IMG/VR virus record: IMGVR_UViG_3300000288_000150 | Length of the DNA: 34,474 bases | Source: a virus | Taxonomy: Duplodnaviria; Heunggongvirae; Uroviricota; Caudoviricetes | Direction: 5' to 3' (one strand) | Shown: positions 5,785-33,037 of the stretch, in pieces | Layout of the letters: each line of letters opens with the position of its first letter | Numbering within the stretch: position 1 is the stretch's first letter | Made by a program: the position numbers and the translations under genes | The notes under the pieces: model-generated | What the model saw: only the letters and a program-made list of their open reading frames with translations | Database searches by the model: none | Told to the model about the DNA's origin: nothing

Positions 5785-6233
5785 TGGCAAAAATTCACGA
5801 GGTAAAGCTGCACGCAAAATATTTCGACCTTGTGCTGGAAGGAAAGAAACGTGCAGAGTTTCGGAAAAATGACCGTAATTATGAGCGCGGGGACACGCTG
5901 ATTTTGCATGAATGGGTACAGGGTGTGTTTACGGGGCGAAAGGTTGAAGCCCGGATAACAGATGTTACTGACCTGTCAGACTGGCTGGAAGATTATGTCT
6001 TGCTAAGTATTGAGCTGCTTAATACAGGCGCATATGAGATTGTGAACTGGAAAGAACTTAGTGAGCGTGGTCTGGTATTCAGAATTAATCATGAAATTAT
6101 GCATCAGCTCGGTCTTGCTGTTATGTATGAGTCAGTGACAGGCCTGTCTGGCGGAGCAGTGGTTGCTGCGGATGGGATGTGGAGCTATTCAGATGAACAG
6201 GTGGAGTGTGCAAAGCAAAAAGGGTGGTTTTGA
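5781..6233 (+). CDS. ASCH-domain (PUA-like fold) protein
   Basis: 150 aa from the ATG at 5781 (GGAG RBS; overlaps the A stop). N-terminal EVKLHAKYFDLVLEGKKRAEFRKNDRNYERGDTLIL resembles the ASCH beta-barrel motif. Domain call from memory, not searched. Confidence 0.5.
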   Translation: MMAKIHEVKLHAKYFDLVLEGKKRAEFRKNDRNYERGDTLILHEWVQGVFTGRKVEARITDVTDLSDWLEDYVLLSIELLNTGAYEIVNWKELSERGLVFRINHEIMHQLGLAVMYESVTGLSGGAVVAADGMWSYSDEQVECAKQKGWF

Positions 6234-6235
6234 AA

Positions 6236-6469
6236 ATGCACAGAATACCAGGCGAGATACCTCAGCATAAAACTAAAAATATCAAGCTGATGGCCATTGT
6301 TCACCGTCTACAGCAGATTATGGTCAACGAAAATCTGACGCCTGATGAGCTGGTCGGGTGTGCCGAAATGGTCCGGGATAATTACAGACGGTTTAACGAT
6401 ATCAGTAGACAGAAAATTGAGGTATTTCGACCAGCAAACATGCCTAAGAAACTACCGCATAGGATGTAG
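6236..6469 (+). CDS. Hypothetical small protein
   Basis: 77 aa from the ATG at 6236 inside ORF 6206..6469; no recognisable motif. Confidence 0.35.
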   Translation: MHRIPGEIPQHKTKNIKLMAIVHRLQQIMVNENLTPDELVGCAEMVRDNYRRFNDISRQKIEVFRPANMPKKLPHRM

Positions 6470-6475
6470 TATACT

Positions 6476-6508
6476 CGCCATTTCTGAAACTTGTTTTCAG
6501 AGATGGCG
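6476..6508 (+). terminator. Strong hairpin (14-bp stem, one mismatch) after the early/replication operon; possible terminator or regulatory structure
   Basis: CGCCATTTCTGAAA...TTTCAGAGATGGCG inverted repeat a few nt after the stop of the 6236..6469 ORF; no clear T-tract follows. Confidence 0.35.
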
Positions 6509-6684
6509 GGGTTGAACAATGAGCGTAGCGACGTGTTAGCTTTGATTCCTGCTGTGTTTACAATTAAACCTATTGAAAATTAATGAGAACTCAATTTCAT
6601 CTTTCTCTCGTTAAAGATGGCCACAACTACTAAAACATGAGAATATCAAAACTTGGCGAAATCTAGCTTTTCCCAAGGGGTGGT

Positions 6685-6720
6685 TTCGCTATAATACGCG
6701 GTCGGTTTTTAGGAGGGGCG
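6685..6720 (+). promoter_or_regulatory. Putative promoter -10 (TATAAT ~6690-6695) and strong Shine-Dalgarno (AGGAGG ~6708-6713) for the methyltransferase
   Basis: Consensus TATAAT hexamer and AGGAGG 7 nt before the ATG at 6721, in a ~250-bp AT-rich intergenic region; -35 not convincing. Confidence 0.35.
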
Positions 6721-7659
6721 ATGCCAACTGTAGTTTCACTTTTTTCTGGATGTGGTGGTTCTGATGCGGGAGTTTTGAGAGCAGGGTTCAATGTGCTGAT
6801 GGCAAACGATATTTTGCCTTATGCAAGGGACGTTTACTTAGAAAACCATCCTGAAACTGATTACATATTGGGCGATATTTCAGGACTCCAATCGTTCCCT
6901 TCTGCCGAATTGCTTATCGGATGCTATCCTTGCCAGGGATTTAGCCAGGGTGGAGCAAGGAAGGCAGATAGAAAGATTAATACTCTATATTTAGAGTTTG
7001 CTCGTGCTTTGAGAAAGATTAAGCCAAAAGCATTCATTGTAGAGAATGTTTCTGGAATGGTAAGGCGTAACTTTGAACATTTGTTAAAGGATCAATTCAA
7101 AGTTTTCGAAGAAGCAGGTTATACAGTAAGCTCGCAAATTCTGAATGCGTCCCACTATGGCGTATCACAAGATAGGAAGAGAATCTTTATCGTAGGAATA
7201 CGAAAAGACTATGGTATTACATACAAATTTCCAAAACCAACACATGGTGATGGCTTGAAACCATATTCAACAATTCGTGATGCTATTGGTCATATGCCTG
7301 TTTGGCCTATTGGTGAGTTTTATGATGCCGATTTTCATTGGTATTATCTATCGCGCAACCGTCGGCAAGATTGGGATCAGATATCTAAAACAATTGTTGC
7401 AAATCCTAGACATATGCCTCTACATCCAATAAGTCCAACATTAGAAAAATTGGGTCCAGATAAGTGGCAATTTACTTCGGATGCACCAGCTCGTAGGTTT
7501 AGTTATCGAGAGGCCGCTATTTTACAGGGTTTTGGAGACCTAATTTTTCCAGAAACTGAACGGGCTTCTATTAATATGAAGTATACAGTAGTTGGCAATG
7601 CTGTTCCGCCTCCTTTATTTGAGGCGGTTGCTAAATCTCTTCCAGATATTTGGGATTAG
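6721..7659 (+). CDS. DNA (cytosine-5)-methyltransferase, small M.HaeIII-like architecture
   Basis: Motif I FSGCGG, motif IV GCYPCQGFS, motif VI FIVENVSGM, motif VIII QDRKRIF, motif X TVVGNAVPPPL, with a variable target-recognition region between VIII and IX. 312 aa. Confidence 0.9.
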   Translation: MPTVVSLFSGCGGSDAGVLRAGFNVLMANDILPYARDVYLENHPETDYILGDISGLQSFPSAELLIGCYPCQGFSQGGARKADRKINTLYLEFARALRKIKPKAFIVENVSGMVRRNFEHLLKDQFKVFEEAGYTVSSQILNASHYGVSQDRKRIFIVGIRKDYGITYKFPKPTHGDGLKPYSTIRDAIGHMPVWPIGEFYDADFHWYYLSRNRRQDWDQISKTIVANPRHMPLHPISPTLEKLGPDKWQFTSDAPARRFSYREAAILQGFGDLIFPETERASINMKYTVVGNAVPPPLFEAVAKSLPDIWD

Positions 7660-8652
7660 TTATTCGACCTTAAGATCATTGATAATTTGTTCGAAATCAA
7701 GAAACCATTGTTCTGAAACTATTTTAGGGCAATGGTTTGTCTTTTTTAAAAGCTGTAATATCCTTGCTCTGTCAATGATCAATACTCCAGCGCAAGGGCT
7801 ATTGTCTACCCATTGACCATCTGAGTTTCGATAGAATACGGGGGTAAACATTAGAGTTGGTATGTCAAAATGCACTTGAAAATATGTTCGTAGTTTCAAT
7901 GAGTGGGCTTCAAGTGTTTTTTTGGGCCAATCTCTTTCTTGGGCTCCACATTGACCTAAAAAGGCAAAGTTACTACTTAATTTATCTTCAAATTCTATAG
8001 TTGCAACTATATCAAAACCACCATCACCTCTCGGATCAGCTCTTTCGCACTCTTGCTCATTAATATAAGGAACAGCTAAGTCTTTTCCTAGCCTTTTCAA
8101 GGCTTTTCTTAAATCAGTACCATAATATTTTCGCCTGTCATCTGAGTTTGCGTCAAATACTCGTACAGTTGAGTGTGCTGGGAGTAGTGCTGTTGCACAA
8201 AATTTACTTACGACAGCAAAATTTTTTGCCCAAAACTGTATTATTCCTTGCCTAGCCTTTGTGAAAGAACGTAACCTCGAGCATGCGAGTAAGAAAATAT
8301 ATATTCTTTGTATCTCAGTGAGGTTTTCTTTCAATGAAATAAAGTCACCATTAATAATAAATGGATAAATATCCTTGAGAAAATTTTGTCTAAAATCGAG
8401 TTGCGTCCAGACATCTTCAACTTGTCTTTCTAAACGGTCATTGCGTTCAGCATCGCAGCCTTCATTTTCATCTTCTTGATATTCTTGATCAATATCATCC
8501 ACACTTGTGTTACTTTGAGTTCTTATTGTTATGAGGTCATTTTTATGTAGATCATAACGACCAGAATAATTTATAACCGTAGCAAGTTCTGCAAGGTCTG
8601 CAAAAAGATGAGGAACACTAGGATGAATGTCTCCGATTTTAAAAATCTTCAT
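7660..8652 (-). CDS. Uncharacterised cargo protein; candidate restriction endonuclease or nuclease effector (possible PD-(D/E)xK-like motif)
   Basis: ORF 7660..8700 minus; preferred start is the ATG at 8652 (MKIFKIGD...), overlapping the upstream gene's stop by ~14 nt. Stop codon directly abuts the MTase stop (7657-7659 / 7660-7662). Segment ...GDGGFDIVATIEFEDK... could be a D...E-x-K catalytic motif. AT-rich. Confidence 0.55.
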   Translation of the reverse strand: MKIFKIGDIHPSVPHLFADLAELATVINYSGRYDLHKNDLITIRTQSNTSVDDIDQEYQEDENEGCDAERNDRLERQVEDVWTQLDFRQNFLKDIYPFIINGDFISLKENLTEIQRIYIFLLACSRLRSFTKARQGIIQFWAKNFAVVSKFCATALLPAHSTVRVFDANSDDRRKYYGTDLRKALKRLGKDLAVPYINEQECERADPRGDGGFDIVATIEFEDKLSSNFAFLGQCGAQERDWPKKTLEAHSLKLRTYFQVHFDIPTLMFTPVFYRNSDGQWVDNSPCAGVLIIDRARILQLLKKTNHCPKIVSEQWFLDFEQIINDLKVE

Positions 8653-9757
8653 CGTCAGAAACCTTTTTGGCTTTAATTGTATTACCAATAAGTTTGACAT
8701 TTTGACTTAGGCGTCTTGCAACTTCCAATGCTTCAGGATTGTAATCAATGGTTGCAACAATTCCAGCCGCTTCAATTAATGCAGATTCAGCTTTATAAAG
8801 TAACGTCATGAAATCTTGTTTTAAGTCTTCAGTTAACTGATACGCAACCTTAAGGTCAGCCCCGTTTCTAAAGGACGTTAAAGCCTTGGGGTTATCAATA
8901 ACAGAAGATAATAGGCGTAAATTTCGGGACTCTCCAACCTTTGTTTTCCCGGAATCATCCTTTTTATAAAGCCATACTGTAAGTTCTCTGGTATTTTCTC
9001 TATTTATATGATGTGGGTGAATTATTACATCATTGGATGTAATATCACCATATTCGTCTTTTTCTGAAACGCCAACAAACAATCCAATTTTCTCGTCAGC
9101 TAAGGCTGTAGATAAAATTGAAAACTTGATCGATTCTTCATCTAATCCATCAATATCATAAAAGTTATTGCTCTCCATTACTTTATAAACGGCTAAAGCA
9201 TCTAGATTTCTCTTGATATGATCTTTTCTGCTACCGATTGCACGAGCAACCTGATGATATCGATCATTAGTCGGTGAGTTTGGGGAGGTGAGACCAAAAA
9301 GTTGCTCGATATAACGAGCCTTCGATAGAGGTTCCCATTGTTTGACACCAGTGATATGTCTGAAACCCAAATAAGGTAAAATTTCAGCTCTGGTATCTCT
9401 AACGATCACTGGTAATTTTTCTAGTGTACCTAGTTTATCTTTAGCGCTTTCGGCGATTTCTATCATCCGGGAGCTGGGTCTGTCGCACTCATATGGGTTA
9501 TGAATAAGTTTAACTGCCGTTAAGCGACGGTTGCCTTCCACAACGGTGTACTTATCTCCCTCTTTAACCGCAATAAGAGGCTCGCCAGGAAAAAATCCAT
9601 TTTCTGCGATTGCATTCATCAAGTCTTCAATAGAGGTTGTTAGAGCTATATGATTTAGCATTGCTTCTGGGGTACGTTCAACACCTTCAGGAAGACGTGG
9701 ATTTTTTGTATCAAGCTCAAGTTTATTGAGGTCGATGTAATCAAGGCTTTCTGTCAT
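8639..9757 (-). CDS. ParB/Srx-fold (ParB N-terminal-domain-like) protein, first gene of the two-gene cargo operon
   Basis: ORF 8639..9790 minus; likely ATG start at 9757 (MTESLDYIDL...). N-terminal region ...IDLNKLELDTKNPR... + ...GFFPGEPLIAVKEGDKYTVVEGNRRLTAVKL... matches the ParB-box pattern. AT-rich. Confidence 0.65.
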   Translation of the reverse strand: MTESLDYIDLNKLELDTKNPRLPEGVERTPEAMLNHIALTTSIEDLMNAIAENGFFPGEPLIAVKEGDKYTVVEGNRRLTAVKLIHNPYECDRPSSRMIEIAESAKDKLGTLEKLPVIVRDTRAEILPYLGFRHITGVKQWEPLSKARYIEQLFGLTSPNSPTNDRYHQVARAIGSRKDHIKRNLDALAVYKVMESNNFYDIDGLDEESIKFSILSTALADEKIGLFVGVSEKDEYGDITSNDVIIHPHHINRENTRELTVWLYKKDDSGKTKVGESRNLRLLSSVIDNPKALTSFRNGADLKVAYQLTEDLKQDFMTLLYKAESALIEAAGIVATIDYNPEALEVARRLSQNVKLIGNTIKAKKVSDDEDF

Positions 9758-9944
9758 AACTCTAATCTCATTAGATATGGTGATATGCAAAGATTAACAC
9801 TGGAGTTAAACGTAGGCTAGAACTGCAATTATGTGCATTAAAATGCATGCGTAAGTAACTCGCTAAAATGAAGCCATAAACTCACAGTGGTGCTATGAAT
9901 AATATGTTATGCAACTGCATTAAAACCGACCCATGAAGCGGGCG

Positions 9945-9963
9945 GGCGAGGCGGGGAAAGCAC
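9945..9963. other. cos site: candidate 19-nt cohesive-end sequence GGCGAGGCGGGGAAAGCAC
   Basis: Sequence matches the P2 cohesive-end sequence as I recall it, and lies where cos is expected (between the old/tin-position cargo and Q), in a GC-rich non-coding stretch. Confidence 0.55.
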
Positions 9964-10102
9964 TGCGCGCTGGCGGTGGTGCGGATTTTATTTTTTCAGC
10001 GTCTGAGCGTGTCGTGACGGCGTTTAGATTGTGCGCCGGGGCATTGGTGTGTCTGCGGGGTGTTTTGTGCGGTGGTGAGCGTGTGAGGGCGTGATGACGG
10101 GA

Positions 10103-10127
10103 TATAAAAAAGCCGCCCGCAGGCGGC
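10103..10127 (-). terminator. Rho-independent terminator downstream of portal gene Q (minus strand)
   Basis: GCCGCC-CGCA-GGCGGC hairpin followed on the minus strand by a T6 tract, directly after the Q stop codon. Confidence 0.55.
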
Positions 10128-10132
10128 GATGT

Positions 10133-11167
10133 TCAGCCGTTGTCAGTGTCCAGTGAGTAGTTTTTAAAGCGGATGACCTCCTGACCGATCCAGCCGTTTA
10201 TCTCGCGGATCCTATCCTGTAACGGGATAAGCTCATTGCGGACAAAGACCTTTGCCACTTTCTCAATATCGCCCAGTGACCCGACGTTCTCCGGCTTGCC
10301 GCCCATCAACTGAAAGGGGATGCGGTGCGCGTCCAGCAGGTCAGCGGCGCTGGCTTTTTTGATATTAAAAAAATCGTCCTTCGTTGCCACTTCACTGAGC
10401 GGGATAATTTTGATGCCGTCGGCTTTCCCCTGTGGGGCATAGAGAAACAGATTTTTAAAGTTGTTGCGGCCTTTCGACTTCACCATGTTTTCGCGGAGCA
10501 TTTCGATATCGTTGCGATCCTGCACGGCATCAGTGACGTACATGATATATCCGGCATGAGCGCCGTTTTCGTAATACTTGCGGCGGAACAGCGTGGCCGA
10601 CTCATTCAGCCAGGCAGAGTTAAGGGCGCTGAGATATTCCGGCAGGCCGTACAGCTCCTGATTAATATCCGGCTCCAGCAGATGAAACACGGAGCCGGGC
10701 GCGAAGGCTGTCGGCTCGTTGAAGGACGGCACCCACCAGTAAACATCCTCTTCCACGCCACGACGGGTATATTTCGCCGGTGAGGTTTCCAGTCTGATGA
10801 CCTTACCGGTGGTGCTGTAGCGCTTTTCCAGAAACGCATTACCGAACACCAGAAAATCCAGCACAAAGCGGCTGAAATCCTGCTGGGAAAGCCACGGGTG
10901 CGGGATAAACGTTGAAGCCAGAATATTACGTTTGACGTAAATCGGTGAGCTGTGATGCACGGCAGCACGCAGACTTTTTGCCAGACCGGTAAAGCTGACC
11001 GGCGGCTCATACCATCTGCCGTTACTGATGCATTCGACGTAATCCAGAATGTCACGGCGGTCGAGTACCGGCACCGGCTCGCCAAAGGTGAATGCCTCCA
11101 TTTTCGGGGCGCTGGCGGTCATTGTTTTTGCCGCAGGTTGCGGTGTTTTCCCTTTTTTCTTGCTCAT
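10133..11167 (-). CDS. Q: Portal protein (P2 gpQ)
   Basis: 344 aa from the ATG at 11167 (MSKKKGKTP...), matching P2 Q length. The ORF-track extension to 11293 runs through an N-run and is an artefact. Confidence 0.9.
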   Translation of the reverse strand: MSKKKGKTPQPAAKTMTASAPKMEAFTFGEPVPVLDRRDILDYVECISNGRWYEPPVSFTGLAKSLRAAVHHSSPIYVKRNILASTFIPHPWLSQQDFSRFVLDFLVFGNAFLEKRYSTTGKVIRLETSPAKYTRRGVEEDVYWWVPSFNEPTAFAPGSVFHLLEPDINQELYGLPEYLSALNSAWLNESATLFRRKYYENGAHAGYIMYVTDAVQDRNDIEMLRENMVKSKGRNNFKNLFLYAPQGKADGIKIIPLSEVATKDDFFNIKKASAADLLDAHRIPFQLMGGKPENVGSLGDIEKVAKVFVRNELIPLQDRIREINGWIGQEVIRFKNYSLDTDNG

Positions 11168-11183
11168 CAGTAAAACTCCAGAA

Positions 11184-11262
11184 NNNNNNNNNNNNNNNNN
11201 NNNNNNNNNNNNNNNNNNNNNNNNNNNNNNNNNNNNNNNNNNNNNNNNNNNNNNNNNNNNNN
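11184..11262. other. Run of N (assembly gap or masked segment) at the P/Q junction
   Basis: 79 consecutive N. Confidence 1.
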
Positions 11263-13004
11263 GGGGTGCTGATACCGGCGGTGAGTGGCTCATTTAACAG
11301 GGCGTGCATGGTCGCCCAGGCGAGGTCGGCGTGGCTGGCTTCCTCGCTGCGGCTGGCCTCATAGGTGGCGCTGCGTCCGCTGCTGGTCATGGTCTTGCGG
11401 ATAGCCATAAACGAGCTGGTGATGTCGGTGGCGCTGACGTCATATTCCAGACAGCCACGGCGGATAACGTCTTTTGCCTTGAGCACCATTGCGGTTTTCA
11501 TTTCCGGTGTGTAGCGGATATCGCGCGCGGCAGGATAGAACGAGCGCACGAGCTGGAACACGCCGACACCGAGGCCGGTGGCATCAATACCGATGTATTC
11601 GACGTTATATTTTTCGGTGAGTTTGCGGATGGATTCAGCCTGGGTGGCAAAGTCCATGCCTTTCCACTGGTGACGCTCAAGTATTCTGAATTTGCCACCG
11701 GCCACCACCGGCGGTGCCAGTACCACGCATCCGGCACTGTCGCCACGGTGTGACGGGTCGTAACCAATCCATACCGGGCGGGAGCCGAACGGATTGGCGG
11801 CAAAGGGTGCATAGTCTTCCCATTCTTCCAGCGTGTCGACCATGCAGCGTTGCAGCTCCTCGAACGGGAACACCGATGCCTTGTCGTCAACAAATTCACA
11901 CATGAACAGGTTTTTAAAATCGTCGGCGCTGTTTTCGCGTTTGAGCTGCTCAATGTCGAACAGCGTGCAGCCGCCTTTCAGGGCGTCCTCAATGGTGACA
12001 ATCTGCCGCCACTGGCCGTCCGCACAGAGAAGACCTCCGGCAAGGGCGTTATGACTGACGTCGATTTCCACGCGTTCGGCGGCGCTGGCGCGTCCCCGGT
12101 TGAACAGTTCACCCGACCAGAACGGGTAGGCGTCGTGCGCCAGCGTGGACGGGGTGGAGAAATAGGTCGAGCGCAGGTGGCTCTGTGAGGCCATACCTGA
12201 TGCCACCTTACGCAGTACCTGAAAATTCGGGATCCAGAAAATCTCGTCGACGTACAGGTCGCCGTTATGGCTCTGTGCGGTGTTGGAGTTGGTGCCGAGA
12301 AAAATCAGTTTTGCGCCGTTATTGCCCAGGACAATCGGGTCACCGGTCAGGTCAACGTCAACCAGACGGGCAAAGGCGATGATGTATTCGCGGAACACAT
12401 ACGCCTGCGTTTTACTGGCCGACAGAAAAATCTGGTTATGACCGGTTTTCAGGGCACGCAGCAGCGCCTCGCGGGAAAAATAAAACGTCGCGCCAATCTG
12501 GCGGGATTTCAGGATATCTCGGATGCGGTGCTCAAGCCCGGCGCGATACCAGTGCAACTGATATTCGAAAGACTGCTCAAAGAAAATCTGCTCCAGCTTT
12601 TCGATGGCCTCGTCACTGAAAAAATTCTTTTTCGGTTTGCGACGCCCGCCTTTGTTGCGGTTAGCGACGTTCGGATTAAGGTCTGCCTCGTTGCCGGTCT
12701 GACTGTAGCGGTTGACCCGTGCCAGTCGTTCAATCTGGCGTCCCAGCAGGTCAATTTCCTTGAAGTCACCGCCGGTTTTCTGCGGTTTGATGATGAGCTG
12801 GGTCAGCCGCGCTTCCAGACTCATTTCGACACGGCTGATGGGGGCAACGCTGTCCCAGCCGTCGCGCTGTTTCCAGCTCTGCACCGTCGGGCGTTTCATC
12901 TGCAACATGGCGGCAATCTGCGGCACGGAAAACCCCTGCCAGTACAGCAGCGCCGCCTGACGACGCGGGTCGTGTAAAAGAGTGGTGTCTGTGGTGATGG
13001 TCAT
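11263..13004 (-). CDS. P: Terminase large subunit (ATPase, P2 gpP); 3' end lies inside the N-run
   Basis: Start at ATG 13004 (MTITTDTTLL..., RBS GAGGT). C-terminus falls in the N-run 11184-11262, so the true stop is not visible. Confidence 0.85.
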
Positions 13005-13177
13005 GAATACCTCGCCGTGATGAATACACGGCAAGGCTACTGAGTCGCGCCCCGCGATTCGCTAAGGTGCTGTTGTGTCAGTGATAAGCCATCCGGGACT
13101 GATGGCGGAGGATGCGCATCGTCGGGAAACTGATGCCGACATGTGACTCCTCTAATCACTATTCAGGACTCCTGACA

Positions 13178-14032
13178 ATGGCAAAAAAAGTCTCAAAATT
13201 CTTTCGTATCGGCGTTGAGGGTGACACCTGTGACGGGCGTGTCATCAGTGCGCAGGATATTCAGGAAATGGCCGAAACCTTTGACCCGCGTGTCTATGGT
13301 TGCCGCATTAACCTGGAACATCTGCGCGGCATCCTGCCTGACGGTATTTTTAAGCGTTATGGCGATGTGACCGAACTGAAGGCCGAAAAGATTGACGATG
13401 ATTCGGCGCTGAAAGGCAAATGGGCGCTGTTTGCGAAAATCACCCCGACCGATGACCTTATCGCGATGAACAAGGCCGCGCAGAAGGTCTACACCTCAAT
13501 GGAAATTCAGCCGAACTTTGCCAACACCGGCAAATGTTATCTGGTGGGGCTGGCCGTCACCGATGACCCGGCAAGCCTCGGCACGGAATACCTGGAATTC
13601 TGCCGCACGGCAAAACACAACCCCCTGAACCGCTTCAAATTAAGCCCTGAAAACCTGATTTCAGTGGCAACGCCCGTTGAGCTGGAATTTGAAGACCTGC
13701 CTGAAACCGTGTTCACCGCCCTGACCGAAAAGGTGAAATCCATTTTTGGCCGCAAACAGGCCAGCGATGACGCCCGTCTGAATGACGTGCATGAAGCGGT
13801 GACCGCTGTTGCTGAACATGTGCAGGAAAAACTGAGCGCCACTGAGCAGCGCCTCGCTGAGATGGAAACCGCCTTTTCCGCACTTAAGCAGGAGGTGACT
13901 GACAGGGCGGATGAAACCAGCCAGGCATTCACCCGCCTGAAAAACAGCCTCGACCACACCGAAAGTCTGACCCAGCAGCGCCGCAGCAAGGCCACCGGCG
14001 GTGGCGGTGACGCCCTGATGACGAACTGCTGA
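13178..14032 (+). CDS. O: Capsid scaffolding protein (P2 gpO)
   Basis: 284 aa from the internal ATG (MAKKVSKFF...); divergent from P; coiled-coil C-terminal half. Confidence 0.9.
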   Translation: MAKKVSKFFRIGVEGDTCDGRVISAQDIQEMAETFDPRVYGCRINLEHLRGILPDGIFKRYGDVTELKAEKIDDDSALKGKWALFAKITPTDDLIAMNKAAQKVYTSMEIQPNFANTGKCYLVGLAVTDDPASLGTEYLEFCRTAKHNPLNRFKLSPENLISVATPVELEFEDLPETVFTALTEKVKSIFGRKQASDDARLNDVHEAVTAVAEHVQEKLSATEQRLAEMETAFSALKQEVTDRADETSQAFTRLKNSLDHTESLTQQRRSKATGGGGDALMTNC

Positions 14033-14090
14033 CCGGCGTCAGTCAGTCCGGAAAAACCTTCACGATTAACCCTTAATTTCAGGAAAAACT

Positions 14091-15164
14091 ATGCGCCAGG
14101 AAACCCGCTTTAAATTTAATGCCTACCTGTCCCGTGTTGCCGAACTGAACGGCATCGACGCCGGTGATGTGTCGAAAAAATTCACCGTTGAACCGTCGGT
14201 CACCCAGACCCTGATGAACACCATGCAGGAGTCCTCTGATTTCCTGACCCGCATCAACATTGTGCCGGTCAGCGAAATGAAAGGGGAAAAAATTGGCATC
14301 GGTGTCACCGGCTCCATCGCCAGCACCACCGACACCGCCGGTGGCACCGAGCGTCAGCCGAAGGACTTCTCGAAGCTGGCGTCAAACAAGTACGAATGCG
14401 ACCAGATTAACTTCGATTTTTATATCCGCTACAAAACGCTTGACCTGTGGGCGCGTTATCAGGATTTCCAGCTCCGTGTCCGTAACGCCATTATCAAACG
14501 CCAGTCCCTTGATTTCATCATGGCCGGTTTTAACGGCGTGAAGCGTGCCGAAACCTCTGACCGCAGCAGCAATCCGATGCTGCAGGATGTGGCGGTCGGC
14601 TGGCTGCAGAAATACCGCAATGAAGCCCCGGCGCGCGTGATGAGCAAGGTCACTGACGAGGAAGGGCACACCACCTCTGAGGTCATCCGCGTGGGTAAGG
14701 GCGGTGATTATGCCAGCCTCGATGCACTGGTGATGGATGCGACCAACAACCTGATTGAGCCGTGGTATCAGGAAGACCCTGACCTTGTGGTGATTGTGGG
14801 GCGTCAGCTGCTGGCGGACAAATATTTCCCCATCGTCAACAAGGAGCAGGACAACAGCGAAATGCTGGCCGCTGACGTCATCATCAGCCAGAAACGCATC
14901 GGTAACCTGCCGGCGGTACGCGTCCCGTACTTCCCGGCGGATGCGATGCTCATCACGAAGCTGGAAAACCTGTCCATCTACTACATGGATGACAGCCATC
15001 GCCGCGTGATTGAGGAAAACCCGAAACTCGACCGCGTGGAGAACTACGAGTCAATGAACATTGATTACGTGGTGGAAGACTACGCCGCCGGTTGTCTGGT
15101 GGAAAAAATTAAGGTCGGTGATTTCTCCACACCGGCTAAGGCGACCGAAGAGCCGGGAGCGTAA
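14091..15164 (+). CDS. N: Major capsid protein (P2 gpN)
   Basis: 357 aa, same length as P2 N; follows O. Confidence 0.9.
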   Translation: MRQETRFKFNAYLSRVAELNGIDAGDVSKKFTVEPSVTQTLMNTMQESSDFLTRINIVPVSEMKGEKIGIGVTGSIASTTDTAGGTERQPKDFSKLASNKYECDQINFDFYIRYKTLDLWARYQDFQLRVRNAIIKRQSLDFIMAGFNGVKRAETSDRSSNPMLQDVAVGWLQKYRNEAPARVMSKVTDEEGHTTSEVIRVGKGGDYASLDALVMDATNNLIEPWYQEDPDLVVIVGRQLLADKYFPIVNKEQDNSEMLAADVIISQKRIGNLPAVRVPYFPADAMLITKLENLSIYYMDDSHRRVIEENPKLDRVENYESMNIDYVVEDYAAGCLVEKIKVGDFSTPAKATEEPGA

Positions 15165-15167
15165 CCG

Positions 15168-15911
15168 ATGACGAGTCCCGCACAGCGCCACATGATGCGG
15201 GTCTCGGCAGCGATGACCGCGCAGCGGGAAGCCGCCCCGCTGCGACATGCAACTGTCTATGAGCAGATGCTGGTTAAGCTCGCCGCAGACCAGCGCACAC
15301 TGAAAGCGATTTATTCAAAAGAGCTTAAGGCCGCGAAAAAACGCGAACTGCTGCCGTTCTGGTTGCCGTGGGTGAACGGCGTGCTGGAGCAGGGCAAAGG
15401 TGCACAGGATGACATTCTGATGACGGTCATGCTGTGGCGTCTGGATACCGGCGATATTGCCGGTGCGCTGGAGATTGCCCGTTATGCCCTGAAGTACGGT
15501 CTGACCATGCCGGGTAAACACCGCCGCACCCCGCCGTACATGTTCACCGAGGAGGTGGCGCTTGCGGCCATGCGCGCTCACGCTGCCGGTGAGTCTGTGA
15601 ATCCCCGCCTGCTGACGGACACCCTTGAACTGACCGCCACGGCTGACATGCCTGATGAAGTGCGCGCAAAGCTGCACAAAATCACCGGTCTGTTTCTGCG
15701 TGACGCTGGTGATGCCGCAGGGGCGCTGGCGCACCTGCAACGTGCGACACAGCTCGACTGTCAGGCAGGCGTCAAAAAAGAGATTGAACGACTGGAGCGG
15801 GAGCTGAAACCGAAGCCGGAGCCGCAGCCAAAAGCGGTCACCCGCGCCCCGCGTAAGACCCGGAGCGTGACACCGGCAAAACGTGGACGCCCGAAAAAGA
15901 AAGCCAGTTAA
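15168..15911 (+). CDS. M: Terminase small (endonuclease) subunit (P2 gpM)
   Basis: 247 aa, same as P2 M; basic Pro/Lys-rich C-terminal tail. Confidence 0.85.
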   Translation: MTSPAQRHMMRVSAAMTAQREAAPLRHATVYEQMLVKLAADQRTLKAIYSKELKAAKKRELLPFWLPWVNGVLEQGKGAQDDILMTVMLWRLDTGDIAGALEIARYALKYGLTMPGKHRRTPPYMFTEEVALAAMRAHAAGESVNPRLLTDTLELTATADMPDEVRAKLHKITGLFLRDAGDAAGALAHLQRATQLDCQAGVKKEIERLERELKPKPEPQPKAVTRAPRKTRSVTPAKRGRPKKKAS

Positions 15912-16010
15912 CAACCGAATGCGCCCCGCGCCAGGGCGGCACGCCGGTCAGTGAGGGTGAATCACCTGACACTGCACCGGCGTCCACCGCCCGACTTTTC
16001 AGAGGTAGTC

Positions 16011-17944: not shown

Positions 17945-18423
17945 TGATTGTGCTGGTCGTGTTGTTATCGCTGGCGGTGTCCGGTCTGTTTCTGGTGAAA
18001 CACAAAAATGCCAGCCTGCGCGCCTCGCTGGACAGGGCGAATAACGTCGCCAGTGAACAGCAGACGACCATCACCATGCTGAAAAATCAGCTTCATGTTN
18101 NNNNNNNNNNNNNNNNNNNNNNNNNNNNNNNNNNNNNNNNNNNNNNNNNNNNNNNNNNNNNNNNNNNNNNCACCAGGGCAGACAAAAACGAGCTGGCGCA
18201 GGTGGCACTGCGTCAGGAACTGGAAAACGCCGCGAAGCGTGAAGCTCAGCGCGAGAAAACCATCACGAGATTACTCAATGAAAACGAAGATTTTCGCCGC
18301 TGGTACGGTGCTGACCTGCCTGATGCTGTGCGCCGGTTGCACCAGCGCCCGGCCTGCGCAGACGCCAGTGATTGTCCACAACGCCTGCCCGAAAGTGAGT
18401 CTTTGCCCGATGCCGGGCAGTGA
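17932..18423 (+). CDS. lysB: LysB (Rz-like inner-membrane spanin component); interrupted by an N-run
   Basis: N-terminal TM segment then charged periplasmic region; the ORF spans the N-run 18100-18170, so length and frame continuity are unverified. Confidence 0.6.
   Translation: MSKLMIVLVVLLSLAVSGLFLVKHKNASLRASLDRANNVASEQQTTITMLKNQLHVXXXXXXXXXXXXXXXXXXXXXXXXTRADKNELAQVALRQELENAAKREAQREKTITRLLNENEDFRRWYGADLPDAVRRLHQRPACADASDCPQRLPESESLPDAGQ
18100..18170. other. Run of N inside lysB
   Basis: 71 consecutive N. Confidence 1.
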
Positions 18424-19509: not shown

Positions 19510-20208
19510 ATGAACACTCTCGCAAATATCCAGGAACTCGCGCGCGCACTGCGCAACATGATACGCCCCGGCATTATCGTCGAAACCGACCTTAACGCCG
19601 GTCGCTGCCGAGTGCAGACCGGCGGCATGTGCACTGACTGGCTTCAGTGGCTGACCCATCGTGCCGGTCGTTCGCGCACATGGTGGGCACCTTCCGTGGG
19701 GGAGCAGGTGCTGATTCTGGCCGTGGGCGGTGAACTCGACACGGCGTTCGTTCTGCCGGGGATTTATTCCGGCGATAACCCCGCGCCGTCTGCGTCGGCG
19801 GATGCCCTGCATATCCGTTTCCCTGACGGGGCGGTGATTGAGTATGAACCCGAAACCAGTGCACTCACGGTAAGCGGAATTAAAACGGCCAGCGTGACGG
19901 CTTCTGATTCTGTTACTGCCACGGTGCCGGTGGTTATGGTGAAAGCATCAACCCGCGTCACCCTGGACACACCGGAGGTGGTCTGCACCAACAGGCTGAT
20001 TACCGGCACGCTGGAAGTGCAGAAGGGCGGGACGATGCGCGGCAACATTGAACACACCGGCGGTGAACTCTCATCAAACGGTAAGGTACTGCATACCCAC
20101 AAACACCCAGGCGACAGCGGCGGCACANNNNNNNNNNNNNNNNNNNNNNNNNNNNNNNNNNNNNNNNNNNNNNNNNNNNNNNNNNNNNNNNNCGGGAGTC
20201 CTCTATGA
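19510..20208 (+). CDS. V: Baseplate spike/assembly protein (P2 gpV); 3' region interrupted by an N-run
   Basis: MNTLANIQELARALRNM... N-terminus; the N-run 20128-20192 sits near the C-terminus, so apparent length is unreliable. Confidence 0.8.
   Translation: MNTLANIQELARALRNMIRPGIIVETDLNAGRCRVQTGGMCTDWLQWLTHRAGRSRTWWAPSVGEQVLILAVGGELDTAFVLPGIYSGDNPAPSASADALHIRFPDGAVIEYEPETSALTVSGIKTASVTASDSVTATVPVVMVKASTRVTLDTPEVVCTNRLITGTLEVQKGGTMRGNIEHTGGELSSNGKVLHTHKHPGDSGGTXXXXXXXXXXXXXXXXXXXXXXGSPL
20128..20192. other. Run of N near the 3' end of V
   Basis: 65 consecutive N. Confidence 1.
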
Positions 20209-24743: not shown

Positions 24744-25271
24744 ATGCAGCATTTAAAAAACATTAAGTCAGGTAATCCAAAAACAAAAGAACAATATCAG
24801 CTAACAAAGAATTTTGATGTTATCTGGTTATGGTCCGAAGACGGAAAAAACTGGTATGAGGAAGTAAGTAATTTTCAGGAAGACACGATAAAGATTGTTT
24901 ACGACGAGAATAATATAATTGTCGGCATCACCAGAGATGCTTCAACGTTCAACCCTGAAGGTTTTAGCGTTGTCGAGGTTCCTGATATTACCGCCAACCG
25001 ACGTGCTGATGACTCAGGTAAATGGATGTTTAAGGATGGTGCCGTGATTAAGCGGATTTATACGGCAGACGAACAGCAACAACAGGCAGAATCACAAAAG
25101 GCCGCGTTACTTTCCGAAGCGGAAAGCGTTATTCAGCCACTGGAGCGCGCTGTCAGGCTGAACATGGCAACAGATGAGGAGCGTAGCCGACTGGAAGCAT
25201 GGGAACGCTACAGTGTTCTGGTCAGCCGTGTGGATCCTGCAAATCCTGAATGGCCGGAAATGCCGCAATAA
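24744..25271 (+). CDS. G: Tail fibre assembly chaperone (P2 gpG)
   Basis: 175 aa, directly downstream of H. Confidence 0.8.
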
Positions 25272-25422
25272 GTTGTATGAGCTGACATATCTATAGCACA
25301 GAGTAAAGCCTAATCTGACAGTCCGCTCTGTGCAAGGAGCGGACATTACCTAACACATTGGTAACCTTCACAGATTTACGCGTTCTACATAGTTAGCATT
25401 GTATCTGATGAGTTATCATGTT

Positions 25423-26202
25423 TTAAAATATCCAACTGATAAATCCACCTGAATACTTTTCACTAATTTTGATTGCATAAAGATCATGAAGAGTTATAAA
25501 TAAATCATTATCTTCTTTGAAAATTAACTCCTCATACTCTGCCATTATCAAATTATGCTGTGTTGTTAGTTTAGATATGTTATCTATTTCACTGGCAAGC
25601 ATGGATTTGTTTACATTGGTGTGTGGATCCATGGCAATATATTTCCGCATCAATGGAATTAGTTGATCAGGGTCTATATTTTTTGCATTTTCCTTTGCTT
25701 TTTTTTGTCTTTCTGAATAGATGGAGTTAATTGTGTTAGTGTGTTTTTTCGCCAGTCTCTTAAACTCTGGATATGAACCAGTAACTAATGCAAGCTCTTC
25801 GTACTTAAGGAATAAATCGATATTGCATTTTTTTACCGTCATTTCAAGATCTTCAACTCTTTTTTTTAACTCTTCATTTGTTTTAATAAGAGACATCGGG
25901 AGAACTTCATAATGTTGTCCTAATTCTGAATCAGGGCTCATTGCCATATGTACTATTTCATTATACATGAGCTGATAAGAAGCAGATAACTCTCCATACT
26001 TTAGAAATAGTTCATTATGTGAAGATGAACAAGAACTTTGTAATTTCATCATTGGCCTAAAGTAATCCTTTATAAACTCCTCCTGAAGATCTTGGTCTTT
26101 TTTGTAGCTCTCTAGGATTCCAGCAAAAAGAAATGACCCTAAAGATATAGAGATTATGGATATTAGCAATTGACTAAGGAATGATTGTGTTTCATTACTC
26201 AT
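25423..26202 (-). CDS. Cargo gene in the Z/fun position: membrane-anchored protein of unknown function (N-terminal TM helix, Lys/Glu-rich helical body)
   Basis: 259 aa, strongly AT-rich against GC-rich tail genes, opposite strand to flanking late genes. Hydrophobic segment LLISIISISLGSFLFAGIL near the N-terminus. Start codon sits directly against the N-run at 26203, so the 5' end is not fully certain. Confidence 0.6.
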   Translation of the reverse strand: MSNETQSFLSQLLISIISISLGSFLFAGILESYKKDQDLQEEFIKDYFRPMMKLQSSCSSSHNELFLKYGELSASYQLMYNEIVHMAMSPDSELGQHYEVLPMSLIKTNEELKKRVEDLEMTVKKCNIDLFLKYEELALVTGSYPEFKRLAKKHTNTINSIYSERQKKAKENAKNIDPDQLIPLMRKYIAMDPHTNVNKSMLASEIDNISKLTTQHNLIMAEYEELIFKEDNDLFITLHDLYAIKISEKYSGGFISWIF

Positions 26203-26279
26203 NNNNNNNNNNNNNNNNNNNNNNNNNNNNNNNNNNNNNNNNNNNNNNNNNNNNNNNNNNNNNNNNNNNNNNNNNNNNN
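26203..26279. other. Run of N immediately upstream of the Z/fun-position cargo gene start
   Basis: 77 consecutive N. Confidence 1.
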
Positions 26280-26527
26280 AAAAAATAACACGAAAAGTGA
26301 CTCCTGACAGGGAAGAAACGACAGGTCGGAAACAAACTTAACTGATGAGTTAGCTGTAGTCCAGAACCTTGTTTTAACACTTAGTGTGACTGTTTGCATC
26401 TCAGGAATTTGTGCCAATAATATTTGAATCCTTATAATTTATTTAAATCAAATTTAGTTACTCGCTCAAAGCAGGCTGTCAGATTTGATAGCGTTTGGGC
26501 TATGTAAACTGTCAGTCGGAAAATGAG

Positions 26528-26545
26528 TGTGTACAAATCAGGACA
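26528..26545 (+). promoter_or_regulatory. Candidate Ogr-dependent late promoter element (TGT-N12-ACA) for the FI-FII-E-T-U-D operon
   Basis: TGTGTACAAATCAGGACA fits the TGT-N12-ACA partial dyad described for P2/P4 late promoters, ~125 bp upstream of the FI start. Confidence 0.4.
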
Positions 26546-26668
26546 GGCGAGCTGATTGCCCGCCTTTTCTTTATCTGTTGTTTCATCCACTGACCAGCCA
26601 GGTCAAATAGCGTCTCATGCTCTGCACAACAGAAAATAGTTGCACCCATTAACCACGGAGTTAAACGG

Positions 26669-27859
26669 ATGAGTGACTATCATCATGGCGTGCAGGTGCT
26701 GGAGATTAACGACGGCACCCGCGTCATTTCCACCGTATCCACTGCCATTGTCGGCATGGTCTGCACGGCCAGCGATGCGGATGCGGAAACCTTCCCTCTC
26801 AATAAACCGGTGCTGATTACCAATGTGCAGAGCGCAATTGCAAAGGCCGGTAAAAAAGGCACGCTGGCGGCGTCGTTACAGGCCATCGCTGACCAGTCAA
26901 AACCGGTCACCGTTGTTGTGCGCGTGGAAGACGGCACCGGCGACGACGAGGAAACGAAACTCGCGCAGACTGTTTCCAATATTATCGGCACCACCGACGA
27001 AAACGGTCAGTACACCGGACTGAAAGCCCTGATGGGGGCTGAGTCGGTTACCGGCGTTAAACCGCGCATTCTCGGCGTACCGGGACTGGACACCAAAGAG
27101 GTCGCCGTCGCACTGGCATCGGTATGCCAGGAACTGAATGCCTTCGGGTATATCAGCGCATGGGGTTGTAAAACCATTTCCGAGGTGAAAGCCTACCGCC
27201 AGAATTTCAGCCAGCGTGAGCTGATGGTTATCTGGCCGGATTTCCTCGCATGGGATACGGTTACCAGTACCACCGCCACCGCGTATGCCACCGCTCGTGC
27301 GCTGGGTCTGCGCGCTAAAATCGACCAGGAGCAGGGCTGGCATAAAACGCTGTCCAACGTCGGGGTGAACGGTGTTACCGGCATCAGTGCATCCGTCTTC
27401 TGGGATTTGCAGAAGCCAGGCACTGATGCTGACCTGCTGAACGAGGCAGGCGTCACAACGCTGGTTCGCCGCGACGGTTTTCGTTTCTGGGGTAACCGTA
27501 CCTGCTCTGATGACCCGCTGTTCCTCTTTGAAAGCTACACACGCACCGCGCAGGTACTGGCCGACACGATGGCTGAGGCGCACATGTGGGCTATTGATAA
27601 GCCCATCACCGCAACGCTGATTCGCGACATCATTGACGGCATCAATGCCAAATTCCGTGAACTGAAAAACAACGGTTATATCGTGGATGGCACATGCTGG
27701 TTCAGCGAAGAATCCAACGATGCGGAAACCCTCAAGGCCGGAAAACTGTATATCGACTACGACTATACCCCGGTGCCTCCTCTCGAAAACCTGACCCTGC
27801 GCCAGCGTATTACTTCCAGATACCTGGCAAGTCTGGTCACTTCGGTTAACAGCAATTAA
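26669..27859 (+). CDS. FI: Tail sheath protein (P2 gpFI)
   Basis: 396 aa, same as P2 FI. Confidence 0.9.
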   Translation: MSDYHHGVQVLEINDGTRVISTVSTAIVGMVCTASDADAETFPLNKPVLITNVQSAIAKAGKKGTLAASLQAIADQSKPVTVVVRVEDGTGDDEETKLAQTVSNIIGTTDENGQYTGLKALMGAESVTGVKPRILGVPGLDTKEVAVALASVCQELNAFGYISAWGCKTISEVKAYRQNFSQRELMVIWPDFLAWDTVTSTTATAYATARALGLRAKIDQEQGWHKTLSNVGVNGVTGISASVFWDLQKPGTDADLLNEAGVTTLVRRDGFRFWGNRTCSDDPLFLFESYTRTAQVLADTMAEAHMWAIDKPITATLIRDIIDGINAKFRELKNNGYIVDGTCWFSEESNDAETLKAGKLYIDYDYTPVPPLENLTLRQRITSRYLASLVTSVNSN

Positions 27860-31809: not shown

Positions 31810-33037
31810 TGCTGGATACGCTGACATTTGATGCAGGCAGTACGCTGACGCCGGATTACATGCTGATGCTCGACAGCAGGGATATTACCGGCAATATCAG
31901 CGATCGACTGATGAGCATGACCCTGACGGATAACCGGGGCTTTGAGGCTGACCAGCTTGATATTGAACTGAACGATGCCGACGGGCAGGTCGGGCTGCCG
32001 GTTCGTGGCGCTGTCCTGACGGTGTATATCGGCTGGAAAGGTTTTGCCCTGGTATGCAAAGGGANNNNNNNNNNNNNNNNNNNNNNNNNNNNNNNNNNNN
32101 NNNNNNNNNNNNNNNNNNNNNNNNNNNNNNNNNNNNNNNNNNNNNNNNNNNNNNNCGGGGCGCACCGGATGTGGTCACCATCCGCGCCCGGAGTGCAGAT
32201 TTTCGCGGGACGCTCAATTCCCGCCGTGAAGGCTCCTGGCATGACACCACGCTCGGTGCGATTGTTGAGGCGATAGCCTCCCGTAACAGGCTGGAAGCCA
32301 GTGTCGCTCCGTCACTGGCCGGAATTAAAATCCCGCACATCGACCAGTCGCAGGAGTCTGATGCGAAATTCCTGACCCGTCTTGCAGAACGCAACGGCGG
32401 TGAGGTGTCGGTAAAAATGGGAAAACTGTTGTTTCTCAAAGCGGGGCAGGGGGTGACGGCCAGCGGTAAAAAAAACCCGCAGGTCACCATAACCCGCAGC
32501 GACGGCGACCGCCATCATTTTGCGATTGCTGACCGTGGAGCCTATACCGGCGTAACGGCAAAGTGGTTACACACCAAAGACCCGAAGCCACAAAAGCAGA
32601 AGGTAAAACTGAAACGCAAAAAGAAAGAGAAACACCTGCGCGCACTGGAGCACCCGAAAGCGAAACCAGTCACGCAGAAGAAAGCGCCAAAAGTACCGGA
32701 AGCGCGCGAAGGTGAATACATGGCTGGTGAGGCTGACAACGTTTTTGCCCTGACCACGGTATATGCCACGAAAGCGCAGGCCATGCGCGCCGCTCAGGCG
32801 AAGTGGGATAAACTGCAACGGGGCGTTGCGGAGTTCTCCATCAGCCTTGCCACTGGTCGTGCTGATATTTACACGGAAACACCGGTCAGAGTGTCAGGCT
32901 TTAAGCGCGTCATAGACGAGCAGGACTGGACAATCACTAAGGTGACACATTTTCTGAATAATAGTGGCTTCACGACGTCCTTAGAGCTTGAGGTCAGGCT
33001 TTCTGATGTGGAGTACGAAACAGAAGATGATGATTAA
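31809..33037 (+). CDS. D: Tail protein D (late gene D); interrupted by an N-run
   Basis: N-terminus MLDTLTFDAGSTLTPDYM... and C-terminus ending at 33037 are both D-like but are joined across the N-run 32065-32155 with an apparent frame change, so the gap length is artificial. Confidence 0.8.
32065..32155. other. Run of N inside D
   Basis: 91 consecutive N. Confidence 1.

Follow-up and report, generated by a model that had tools for sequence, protein, structure and literature searches.

What might a solitary AT-rich gene be doing on the opposite strand between 2 tail genes of a P2-type prophage? The question is raised by a viral DNA stretch of 34,474 nucleotides (IMG/VR virus record IMGVR_UViG_3300000288_000150, class Caudoviricetes), referred to as a whole as the window, which carries such a gene, hereafter the cargo gene, in the variable cassette known in P2 as the Z-region. 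We found that the gene is real, complete, and under purifying selection, that it moves as a single gene, and that it has a relative fused to a caspase-like domain, with members of its family located in a prophage hotspot and in defence islands. We consider an anti-phage role, by any mechanism, to be probable on this sequence evidence, and our preferred reading, to which we assign a probability of roughly 0.4, is that the product could be a stand-alone envelope-acting anti-phage protein whose periplasmic bundle would meet the phage penetration machinery and whose transmembrane (TM) segment would stop genome entry. The gene and its cassette are placed as follows.

25423..26202, minus strand: cargo coding sequence, 259 amino acids plus stop (stop codon 25423-25425), ATG start
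25348..26460, no strand assigned: variable cargo cassette, the P2 'Z-region', 1113 window positions, 1047 real bp after correction of the run of N letters (N-run)

The cargo gene is flanked by the tail-fibre assembly gene G (24744-25271, plus strand) and the sheath gene FI (26669-27859, plus strand), with both annotations taken from the matching locus of Escherichia coli SF-088 and from Yersinia phage L-413C. A preliminary description made from the letters alone had placed the open reading frame (ORF) between a tail-fibre assembly gene and a sheath gene, where P2 carries Z/fun, and had called it AT-rich, and both statements were borne out: its guanine-cytosine (GC) content is 0.318 (0.28 at third codon positions, GC3), compared with 0.511 for the window and 0.558 (GC3, 0.66) for FI. 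The encoded protein is 100% identical to WP_001540329.1, a RefSeq "hypothetical protein" of the same 259 amino acids, and to NP_839869.1 of L-413C, where it is the product of ORF L-413Cp20 and is labelled "unknown". The family is rare: among 1.84 billion representatives it forms 45 clusters at 90% identity and 91 at the 50% level, with most by far of 255-265 amino acids, and the ratio of nonsynonymous to synonymous substitution rates (dN/dS) of the cargo gene against seven orthologues was 0.06-0.30, which denotes purifying selection. Because of the cluster counts, the uniform length, and the dN/dS values, the ORF is a genuine gene rather than one open by chance.

By blastn against P2, Wphi, vB_EcoM-12474III, and pro147, the shared flanks stop at ~25343-25348 and restart at ~26461-26486, and the cassette between them has a GC content of 0.323. 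The same slot is occupied by Z/fun in P2 and orf44 in Wphi (299 amino acids, plus strand), by a SMEK-domain gene on the minus strand in vB_EcoM-12474III, and by a gene of 269 amino acids, also on the minus strand, in pro147; these cargos of other P2-like phages are different, unrelated single genes, all GC-poor (0.35-0.38). The P2 Z-region is a documented site of horizontal transfer, with Z/Fun entered as phage exclusion (PMC3091744), and is known as a site of defence cargo and horizontal transfer (bioRxiv 10.1101/2024.10.15.618418). The cargo gene was present in 13 of the 1842 E. coli genomes matching the flanks, with a locus identity of 99-100%, and in 1 of 146 related phage records (L-413C). 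Seven IMG/VR contigs carry it in the same slot and 99-100% identical, with the adjoining FI flank only 93-96% identical, and because of this difference the comparison indicates that the cassette has moved between diverged P2-like backbones, and recently. The cassette would represent an accessory ('moron') gene that a P2-type prophage acquired independently and carries in its Z-region hotspot. From integrase to ogr, the window holds an entire P2-type prophage of E. coli, integrated between cpxP and fieF. It is 99.9-100% identical to that of the bloodstream isolate E. coli SF-088, and its region from G through the cargo gene to FI (24744-27200) is identical to that of the plague-diagnostic phage L-413C.

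These frequencies bear on whether the gene serves a function of the phage's own, such as lysis timing, a spanin-like role, tail or tail-fibre assembly, or regulation. Its seat among tail genes would suit such a function, and i-spanins have an N-terminal TM helix, a helical periplasmic domain, and conserved cysteines, an architecture that the cargo protein superficially resembles. The gene is nevertheless found in very few of the flank-carrying genomes and related phages, is GC-poor, and runs opposite to the late operons, and most members of the family lie outside phages. It is not encoded in a lysis cassette alongside an o-spanin, as an i-spanin (Rz/LysB type) would be: holin, endolysin, and the lysB/lysC genes are annotated ~8 kb away in the same prophage, and the cargo gene stands isolated between tail operons. 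We regard a function for the phage itself as highly improbable.

The start codon abuts an N-run, and the preliminary description had held that the promoter and ribosome-binding site, and possibly the true N-terminus, were out of view. For the ribosome-binding site and the N-terminus this proved to be an artefact.

26203..26279, no strand assigned: N-run, 77 N, a scaffolding placeholder for 11 real bases

The real bases under the N-run, as read in L-413C and 13 complete E. coli genomes, are AAGGATGTTTT (5' to 3', coding strand); they supply a Shine-Dalgarno sequence, AAGGA, 6 nt ahead of the same ATG, and in the complete genomes an in-frame TAA lies 12 nt upstream of that ATG, so the N-terminus of the cargo protein is complete. 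The window holds five such runs of 65-91 N each (11184-11262, 18100-18170, 20128-20192, 26203-26279, and 32065-32155), standing for 14, 5, 2, 11, and 26 real bases, respectively, in E. coli SF-088. As each run exceeds the sequence that it hides by ~63-66 N, the N-runs of the window are, from this comparison, evidently scaffolding or gap-size artefacts and not true gaps.

The architecture of the cargo protein, on which the preferred reading depends, maps to the window as follows, with conservation given for 63 members of the family.

26107..26181, minus strand: codons of the TM helix, residues 8-32 (AlphaFold helix and hydropathy)
25459..26094, minus strand: codons of the helical bundle, residues 37-248, with helices at residues 37-88, 100-141, 144-172, 178-190, and 196-248 (AlphaFold2)
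26029..26031, minus strand: Cys58 codon, 92% conserved
25825..25827, minus strand: Cys126 codon, 90% conserved
25426..25446, minus strand: codons of the C-terminal aromatic tail G253-F-I-S-W-I-F259 (family motif GF..W.F)

The best 19-residue Kyte-Doolittle window scored 2.36 at residues 12-30 and marks the sole hydrophobic segment of the protein, which together with the AlphaFold helix agrees with the single N-terminal TM helix proposed earlier. A cleavable signal peptide or a lipoprotein was considered and rejected, with a hydrophobic core of 22 residues, no basic n-region, and no lipobox Cys. The AlphaFold2 model (mc0c0c3abdd0d) is all-helical, with a mean predicted local distance difference test (pLDDT) score of 81.6 and a predicted template modelling (pTM) score of 0.71. 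Lysine and glutamate each account for 9.3% of residues and charged residues for 25.5%; the long Lys/Glu-rich helical body foreseen by the preliminary description therefore stood as regards composition and helicity, but the model folds as a compact bundle and not as an extended coiled coil.

Two alignments were used, a close-family alignment (A1) and a diverse 63-sequence family alignment reaching 15% identity (A2), which was too divergent for the locus scan, for which A1 was used instead. The bundle body is distinguished by a co-varying cysteine pair and is joined to a strongly conserved motif at the TM end and juxtamembrane region, G22-S23-x-L-F-A27-G28-x-L-E31-x-Y33-K34-x-D36, in which E31 is conserved in 87%, K34 in 83%, and G28 and Y33 in 81% of the 63 sequences. 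The only columns at least 90% conserved in A2 were Met1, Cys58, and Cys126. Both cysteines were present in 57 of the 63 sequences, neither in 5, and one in 1, with double losses in at least 2 separate branches. In the C-terminal tail, which has low pLDDT, G253 and F254 are invariant in A1 and 71-75% conserved in A2. Residues invariant in the close family include R49, P50, M51, C58, H62, E82, S104, Y134, E136, R165, K174, and R186, and we infer that those of helices 37-88 and 100-141 pair in antiparallel register with i+j = 184-186 (R49/E136, M51/Y134, C58/C126, F66/L119, and E82/S104). Such a register would set Cys58 and Cys126 side by side, a proximity derived from helix-register reasoning and not from model coordinates, and the 2 residues may form a disulfide.

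On which side of the membrane would this bundle lie? An N-in/C-out orientation with the bundle in the periplasm is, in our judgement, the probable one, and an informative relative is a caspase fusion, P0120 (512 amino acids; JGI 3300046463, 8001-9539), in which a Peptidase_C14 domain leads through a Lys-rich linker into a TM helix and a homologous bundle. No signal peptide precedes its N-terminal caspase-like domain (Peptidase_C14, E 2.4e-17), in which SGHG and DAC dyad motifs are recognisable, and hhalign aligned the P0120 bundle with the family at 95.6% (E 1e-8), bringing both cysteines into register along with the E-x-[YF]-K and GF motifs. The fusion was assembled in two independent samples. 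The folded N-terminal protease must stay cytoplasmic, and the single TM helix therefore puts the P0120 bundle outside. In the Pfam search, Peptidase_C14 was missing from the window protein and was present only in this distant relative. Further, several members have basic N-tails of 35-50 residues (e.g., 13 K/R in 39 residues), and the periplasmic placement is favoured because a co-varying cysteine pair is expected of an exported, disulfide-bonded domain.

We examined the genomic contexts of the family at 17 loci, 16 of them non-P2; for four distant members, short contigs left the context uninformative. The family gene was solitary in all 17 contexts, with no recurring neighbour, and outside the clade of E. 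coli and L-413C it was not in P2 prophages. Its GC content was below that of the locus in 13 of 13 species loci (e.g., 0.33 against 0.50 in Phytobacter, 0.53 against 0.68 in Bordetella, and 0.48 against 0.58 in Pseudomonas). Of the 16 non-P2 contexts, 8 had a defence or defence-candidate gene no more than two genes away, an association that is suggestive and not statistically tested, given a small sample and no background model. The contexts with recognisable neighbours are listed below, in gene order.

Vibrio sagamiensis: HsdM-HsdS-HsdR, family gene, DUF4440, HNH gene (HNH, PADLOC 5e-16)
Caspase fusion: HsdR-HsdS-AAA_13-HsdM, then the fusion gene
Enterobacter ludwigii: Mrr_cat, then the family gene
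Thiodiazotropha: family gene, ORF of 91 amino acids, AbiEi-AbiEii
Kangiellaceae: family gene, ORF of 209 amino acids, DUF4132/DUF7737, NACHT gene
Phytobacter: family gene, then PDC-S06 (1086 bits)
Vibrio sp.: PDC-S31 (1e-34), then the family gene
Superficieibacter: DrmC-like PLD (2e-20), then the family gene
Pectobacterium: integrase-bounded island, ~2.5 kb from a type VI secretion system (T6SS) Hcp-VgrG-DcrB-PAAR/Rhs cluster
Teredinibacter: cassette-like array with IS110 and a HEPN gene

Because restriction-modification (R-M), Mrr, AbiE, NACHT, and PADLOC-candidate neighbours recur, guilt by association makes the family a defence candidate, and its distribution over at least a dozen genera is suggestive of the genomic behaviour of a defence gene. 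Directly ahead of the caspase fusion, the AAA_13 ATPase is inserted between hsdS and hsdM of the type I R-M operon. In Teredinibacter turnerae (4000-16000), the array consists of small unrelated genes on the same strand (ABM, methyltransferase, acetyltransferases, CN-hydrolase, and HEPN_Cthe2314) with an adjacent IS110 transposase and recalls an integron-like array of cassettes. A conserved partner gene was sought and rejected: DUF4440 (SnoaL-like) genes follow the family gene in two contexts (V. sagamiensis 9127-9513 and E. ludwigii 8041-8397), in opposite orientations, and are missing elsewhere, including the P2 cassette, so that this adjacency is probably a coincidence.

The same contexts offer some material for an envelope role outside defence, in which the product would serve as orphan immunity to a toxin aimed at the periplasm or membrane (a bacteriocin or an effector of the T6SS or of contact-dependent inhibition) or as a lysogenic-conversion or host-fitness factor of the envelope. 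In Bordetella, Pseudomonas, Pantoea, Marinomonas, and a Nitrospirota metagenome-assembled genome, nothing recognisable was found nearby, so that about half of the contexts have no defence neighbour; the Pectobacterium copy lies near the Hcp-VgrG-DcrB-PAAR/Rhs cluster; and one UniRef entry is titled 'Lysogenic conversion protein', although this amounts to no more than a label. Immunity genes typically spread singly and encode small proteins of the periplasm with a membrane anchor. A cognate toxin gene was, however, never adjacent in the contexts examined, the repeated adjacency to R-M, Mrr, AbiE, and PADLOC candidates speaks for defence, and a caspase fusion is hard to square with an immunity protein. 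We consider this explanation unlikely, though a serious alternative.

Does the cargo protein belong to any described system? Searches of Pfam, NCBIfam, and PDB sequences gave zero matches, which together with the PADLOC result given below upholds the earlier statement that no enzymatic motif is recognisable. A profile match was obtained to PHROG 7729 (function unassigned; E 1.3e-126) over residues 79-259, but because this profile begins only at an internal Met, the TM helix and Cys58 fall outside it. A literature search by accession and of the supplements of Vassallo 2022 and Rousset 2022 returned no mention of the protein.

Exclusion of phage T5 from the lysogen is characteristic of P2 Z/fun, and the cargo gene shares with Z/fun the G-FI slot and the character of a single AT-rich accessory gene (GC 0.37 in Z/fun against 0.32) dispensable for the phage. 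The Z/fun product, however, has 299 amino acids and no TM segment (maximum hydropathy 1.23) and is encoded on the same strand as the tail genes, whereas the cargo protein is membrane-anchored and encoded on the opposite strand, and homology to Z/fun (Wphi orf44) was rejected, with an hhalign probability of 0.4% for the family profile. The exclusion proteins Sp and Imm of T4, SieA of P22, Sim of P1, gp15 of HK97, and lactococcal Sie2009 are products of small single phage or prophage genes, membrane-anchored or periplasmic and without enzymatic motifs, and are thought to act at genome entry. The cargo family differs from them: it is mostly chromosomal and lies in defence islands of many genera, its bundle is large and well folded, two of its cysteines co-vary, and one relative carries a caspase domain. 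Phage- or prophage-borne copies with a predicted TM helix include those of the window, L-413C, and the 7 IMG/VR contigs, but most members are chromosomal and outside prophages.

Zorya ZorAB and Kiwa KwaA are multi-gene membrane 'sentinel' systems of multi-pass or motor-like proteins that sense envelope events. The concept of an inner-membrane protein whose extracytoplasmic part detects penetration would be common to them and the cargo protein, and the caspase-fused relative has a sensor-TM-effector layout, but the cargo protein is a single bitopic protein without a cytoplasmic domain and gave zero PADLOC matches to them. With Tar/4HB_MCP and TorS it would share a long antiparallel bundle tethered to the inner membrane with both bundle ends at the membrane; it differs in lacking a second TM helix and a cytoplasmic signalling module, a 4HB_MCP-type domain gave no Pfam match, and the Foldseek matches to TorS/Tar (E 0.8-1.0) were not significant. 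In position and kind, the cargo gene resembles Z/fun and other single-gene prophage exclusion and defence cargo, and because every homology test failed it is a member of none of these families.

On the preferred reading, the product would be a bitopic inner-membrane protein with an N-tail of 8 residues, one TM helix bearing a conserved small-xxx-small/E-x-Y-K motif, and a bundle of ~215 residues. The periplasmic bundle would be stapled by a Cys58-Cys126 disulfide, with the aromatic C-terminal tail returning to the membrane surface. The bundle would then engage the incoming phage tail tip or its ejection or tape-measure proteins, and the conserved TM/juxtamembrane segment would prevent productive genome entry. 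A broader version, that the family is a new, widely mobile single-protein envelope sentinel whose disulfide-stapled periplasmic bundle detects penetration and either blocks entry via the TM segment or signals across the membrane to the fused protease in relatives, appears doubtful to us; equally doubtful is its corollary that anti-phage immunity has in this bundle a modular sensor of the periplasm with no kinship to the systems described so far.

A blocked entry is to be set against an abortive-infection effector, in which the bundle, on either side of the membrane, would sense infection and oligomerising TM segments would permeabilise or depolarise the inner membrane, killing or arresting the cell; in the caspase-fused relative, the protease would be the output or an activating step. 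The chromosomal distribution in defence islands and the caspase fusion fit such an effector better than a passive block. The protein nonetheless has one TM helix, with no other hydrophobic or amphipathic pore-forming element detected, no partner sensor or antitoxin gene was found in any context, and the structure matches are generic. Further, a bundle in the periplasm, for which the paired cysteines and the N-terminal cytoplasmic caspase speak, would be blind to phage components in the cytoplasm. Abortive infection is in our view rather unlikely, though it deserves more weight than an envelope role outside defence.

Several observations weigh against the reading of an envelope-acting block to entry. 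The PADLOC-DB v2.0 hidden Markov model search of the cargo protein returned 0 families at E ≤ 1, and in tblastn against 50,697 phage records the sole relative was L-413C and no characterised exclusion protein was matched. The fold is a generic helical bundle, with de novo designs on top of the structure matches. No minus-strand sigma-70 consensus match was found upstream of the cargo gene, and the scan gave no excess over shuffles. Half of the non-P2 contexts are without a defence neighbour; classical exclusion genes are carried by phages, whereas most members here are chromosomal. Only one cluster has the caspase fusion, in which a protease in the cytoplasm suits a sensor-effector (abortive) logic more readily than it does a passive block. 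As to the cysteines, the close homologue P0006 (Superficieibacter, outside A2) has Tyr at position 126, with Cys58 kept. As to topology, the E. coli and enterobacterial subfamily has 0 K/R in the N-tail against 3-4 K/R just past the TM helix, and the positive-inside tally over 63 members (mean K+R of 1.95 N-terminal and 2.75 C-terminal to the TM helix) is ambiguous. The topology therefore rests on the fusion, the N-tails, and the cysteines, and the long basic N-tails could be start-codon miscalls.

The membrane-level superinfection exclusion or abortive infection put forward in the preliminary description accordingly held in part. A single-gene Z-region cargo with a membrane anchor and defence neighbours of its relatives agrees with it, whereas the gene is unrelated to Z/fun and to every PADLOC v2 family, has no relative in the other phages searched, and belongs to a mostly non-prophage family that is atypical of classical superinfection exclusion. 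From these lines together we infer a probable anti-phage role, with a block to entry as its possible mode.

The remaining features of the locus concern its non-coding parts.

26280..26460, minus strand: AT-rich 5' non-coding part of the cassette, expected promoter site
25321..25344, no strand assigned: GC-rich hairpin, 8-9 bp, GTCCGCTC-loop-GAGCGGAC, forming on both strands

An Rfam search of the cassette 5' region gave zero matches, and the 5' leader of the cargo gene folds no better than shuffles (z +1.09), as does the 3' region. The hairpin is placed between the convergent G and cargo genes, inside the flank common to other P2-like phages; it has no U-tract and was not scored as an intrinsic terminator.

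The window also has cargo in the other, old/tin-type hotspot (6721-9757), between replication gene A and the portal gene, where three genes were identified. The first encodes a ParB-N-like protein of 372 amino acids, with matches to PD-Lambda-5_A (7e-23) and PDC-M38A over its initial ~160 residues; the second, a protein of 330 amino acids with zero matches; and the third, a C5-cytosine DNA methyltransferase (Pfam 3.7e-62; PADLOC DruM-like). These genes may constitute a variant PD-Lambda-5-type system with a methylase.

P2-type prophages are an established reservoir of anti-phage genes, with work centred on the old/tin hotspot and on cargo resembling known systems. The cargo gene has stood in GenBank as "unknown" since the sequencing of L-413C, has no match in the defence catalogues searched, and is relevant to that plague-diagnostic phage, which carries it. 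The defence candidacy of a Z-region gene is unsurprising to specialists; the architecture is nevertheless unusual, the fusion is informative, and the features seen at the family level make the gene a well-defined and cheap experimental target. Should it have no phage phenotype, it would join the other hotspot genes whose function is unknown. If cells are protected by it, the gene would represent a very compact system acting at the envelope through a single protein, and it could be among the few defences with a periplasm-facing sensing domain, with the natural sensor-protease fusion as a route into mechanism.

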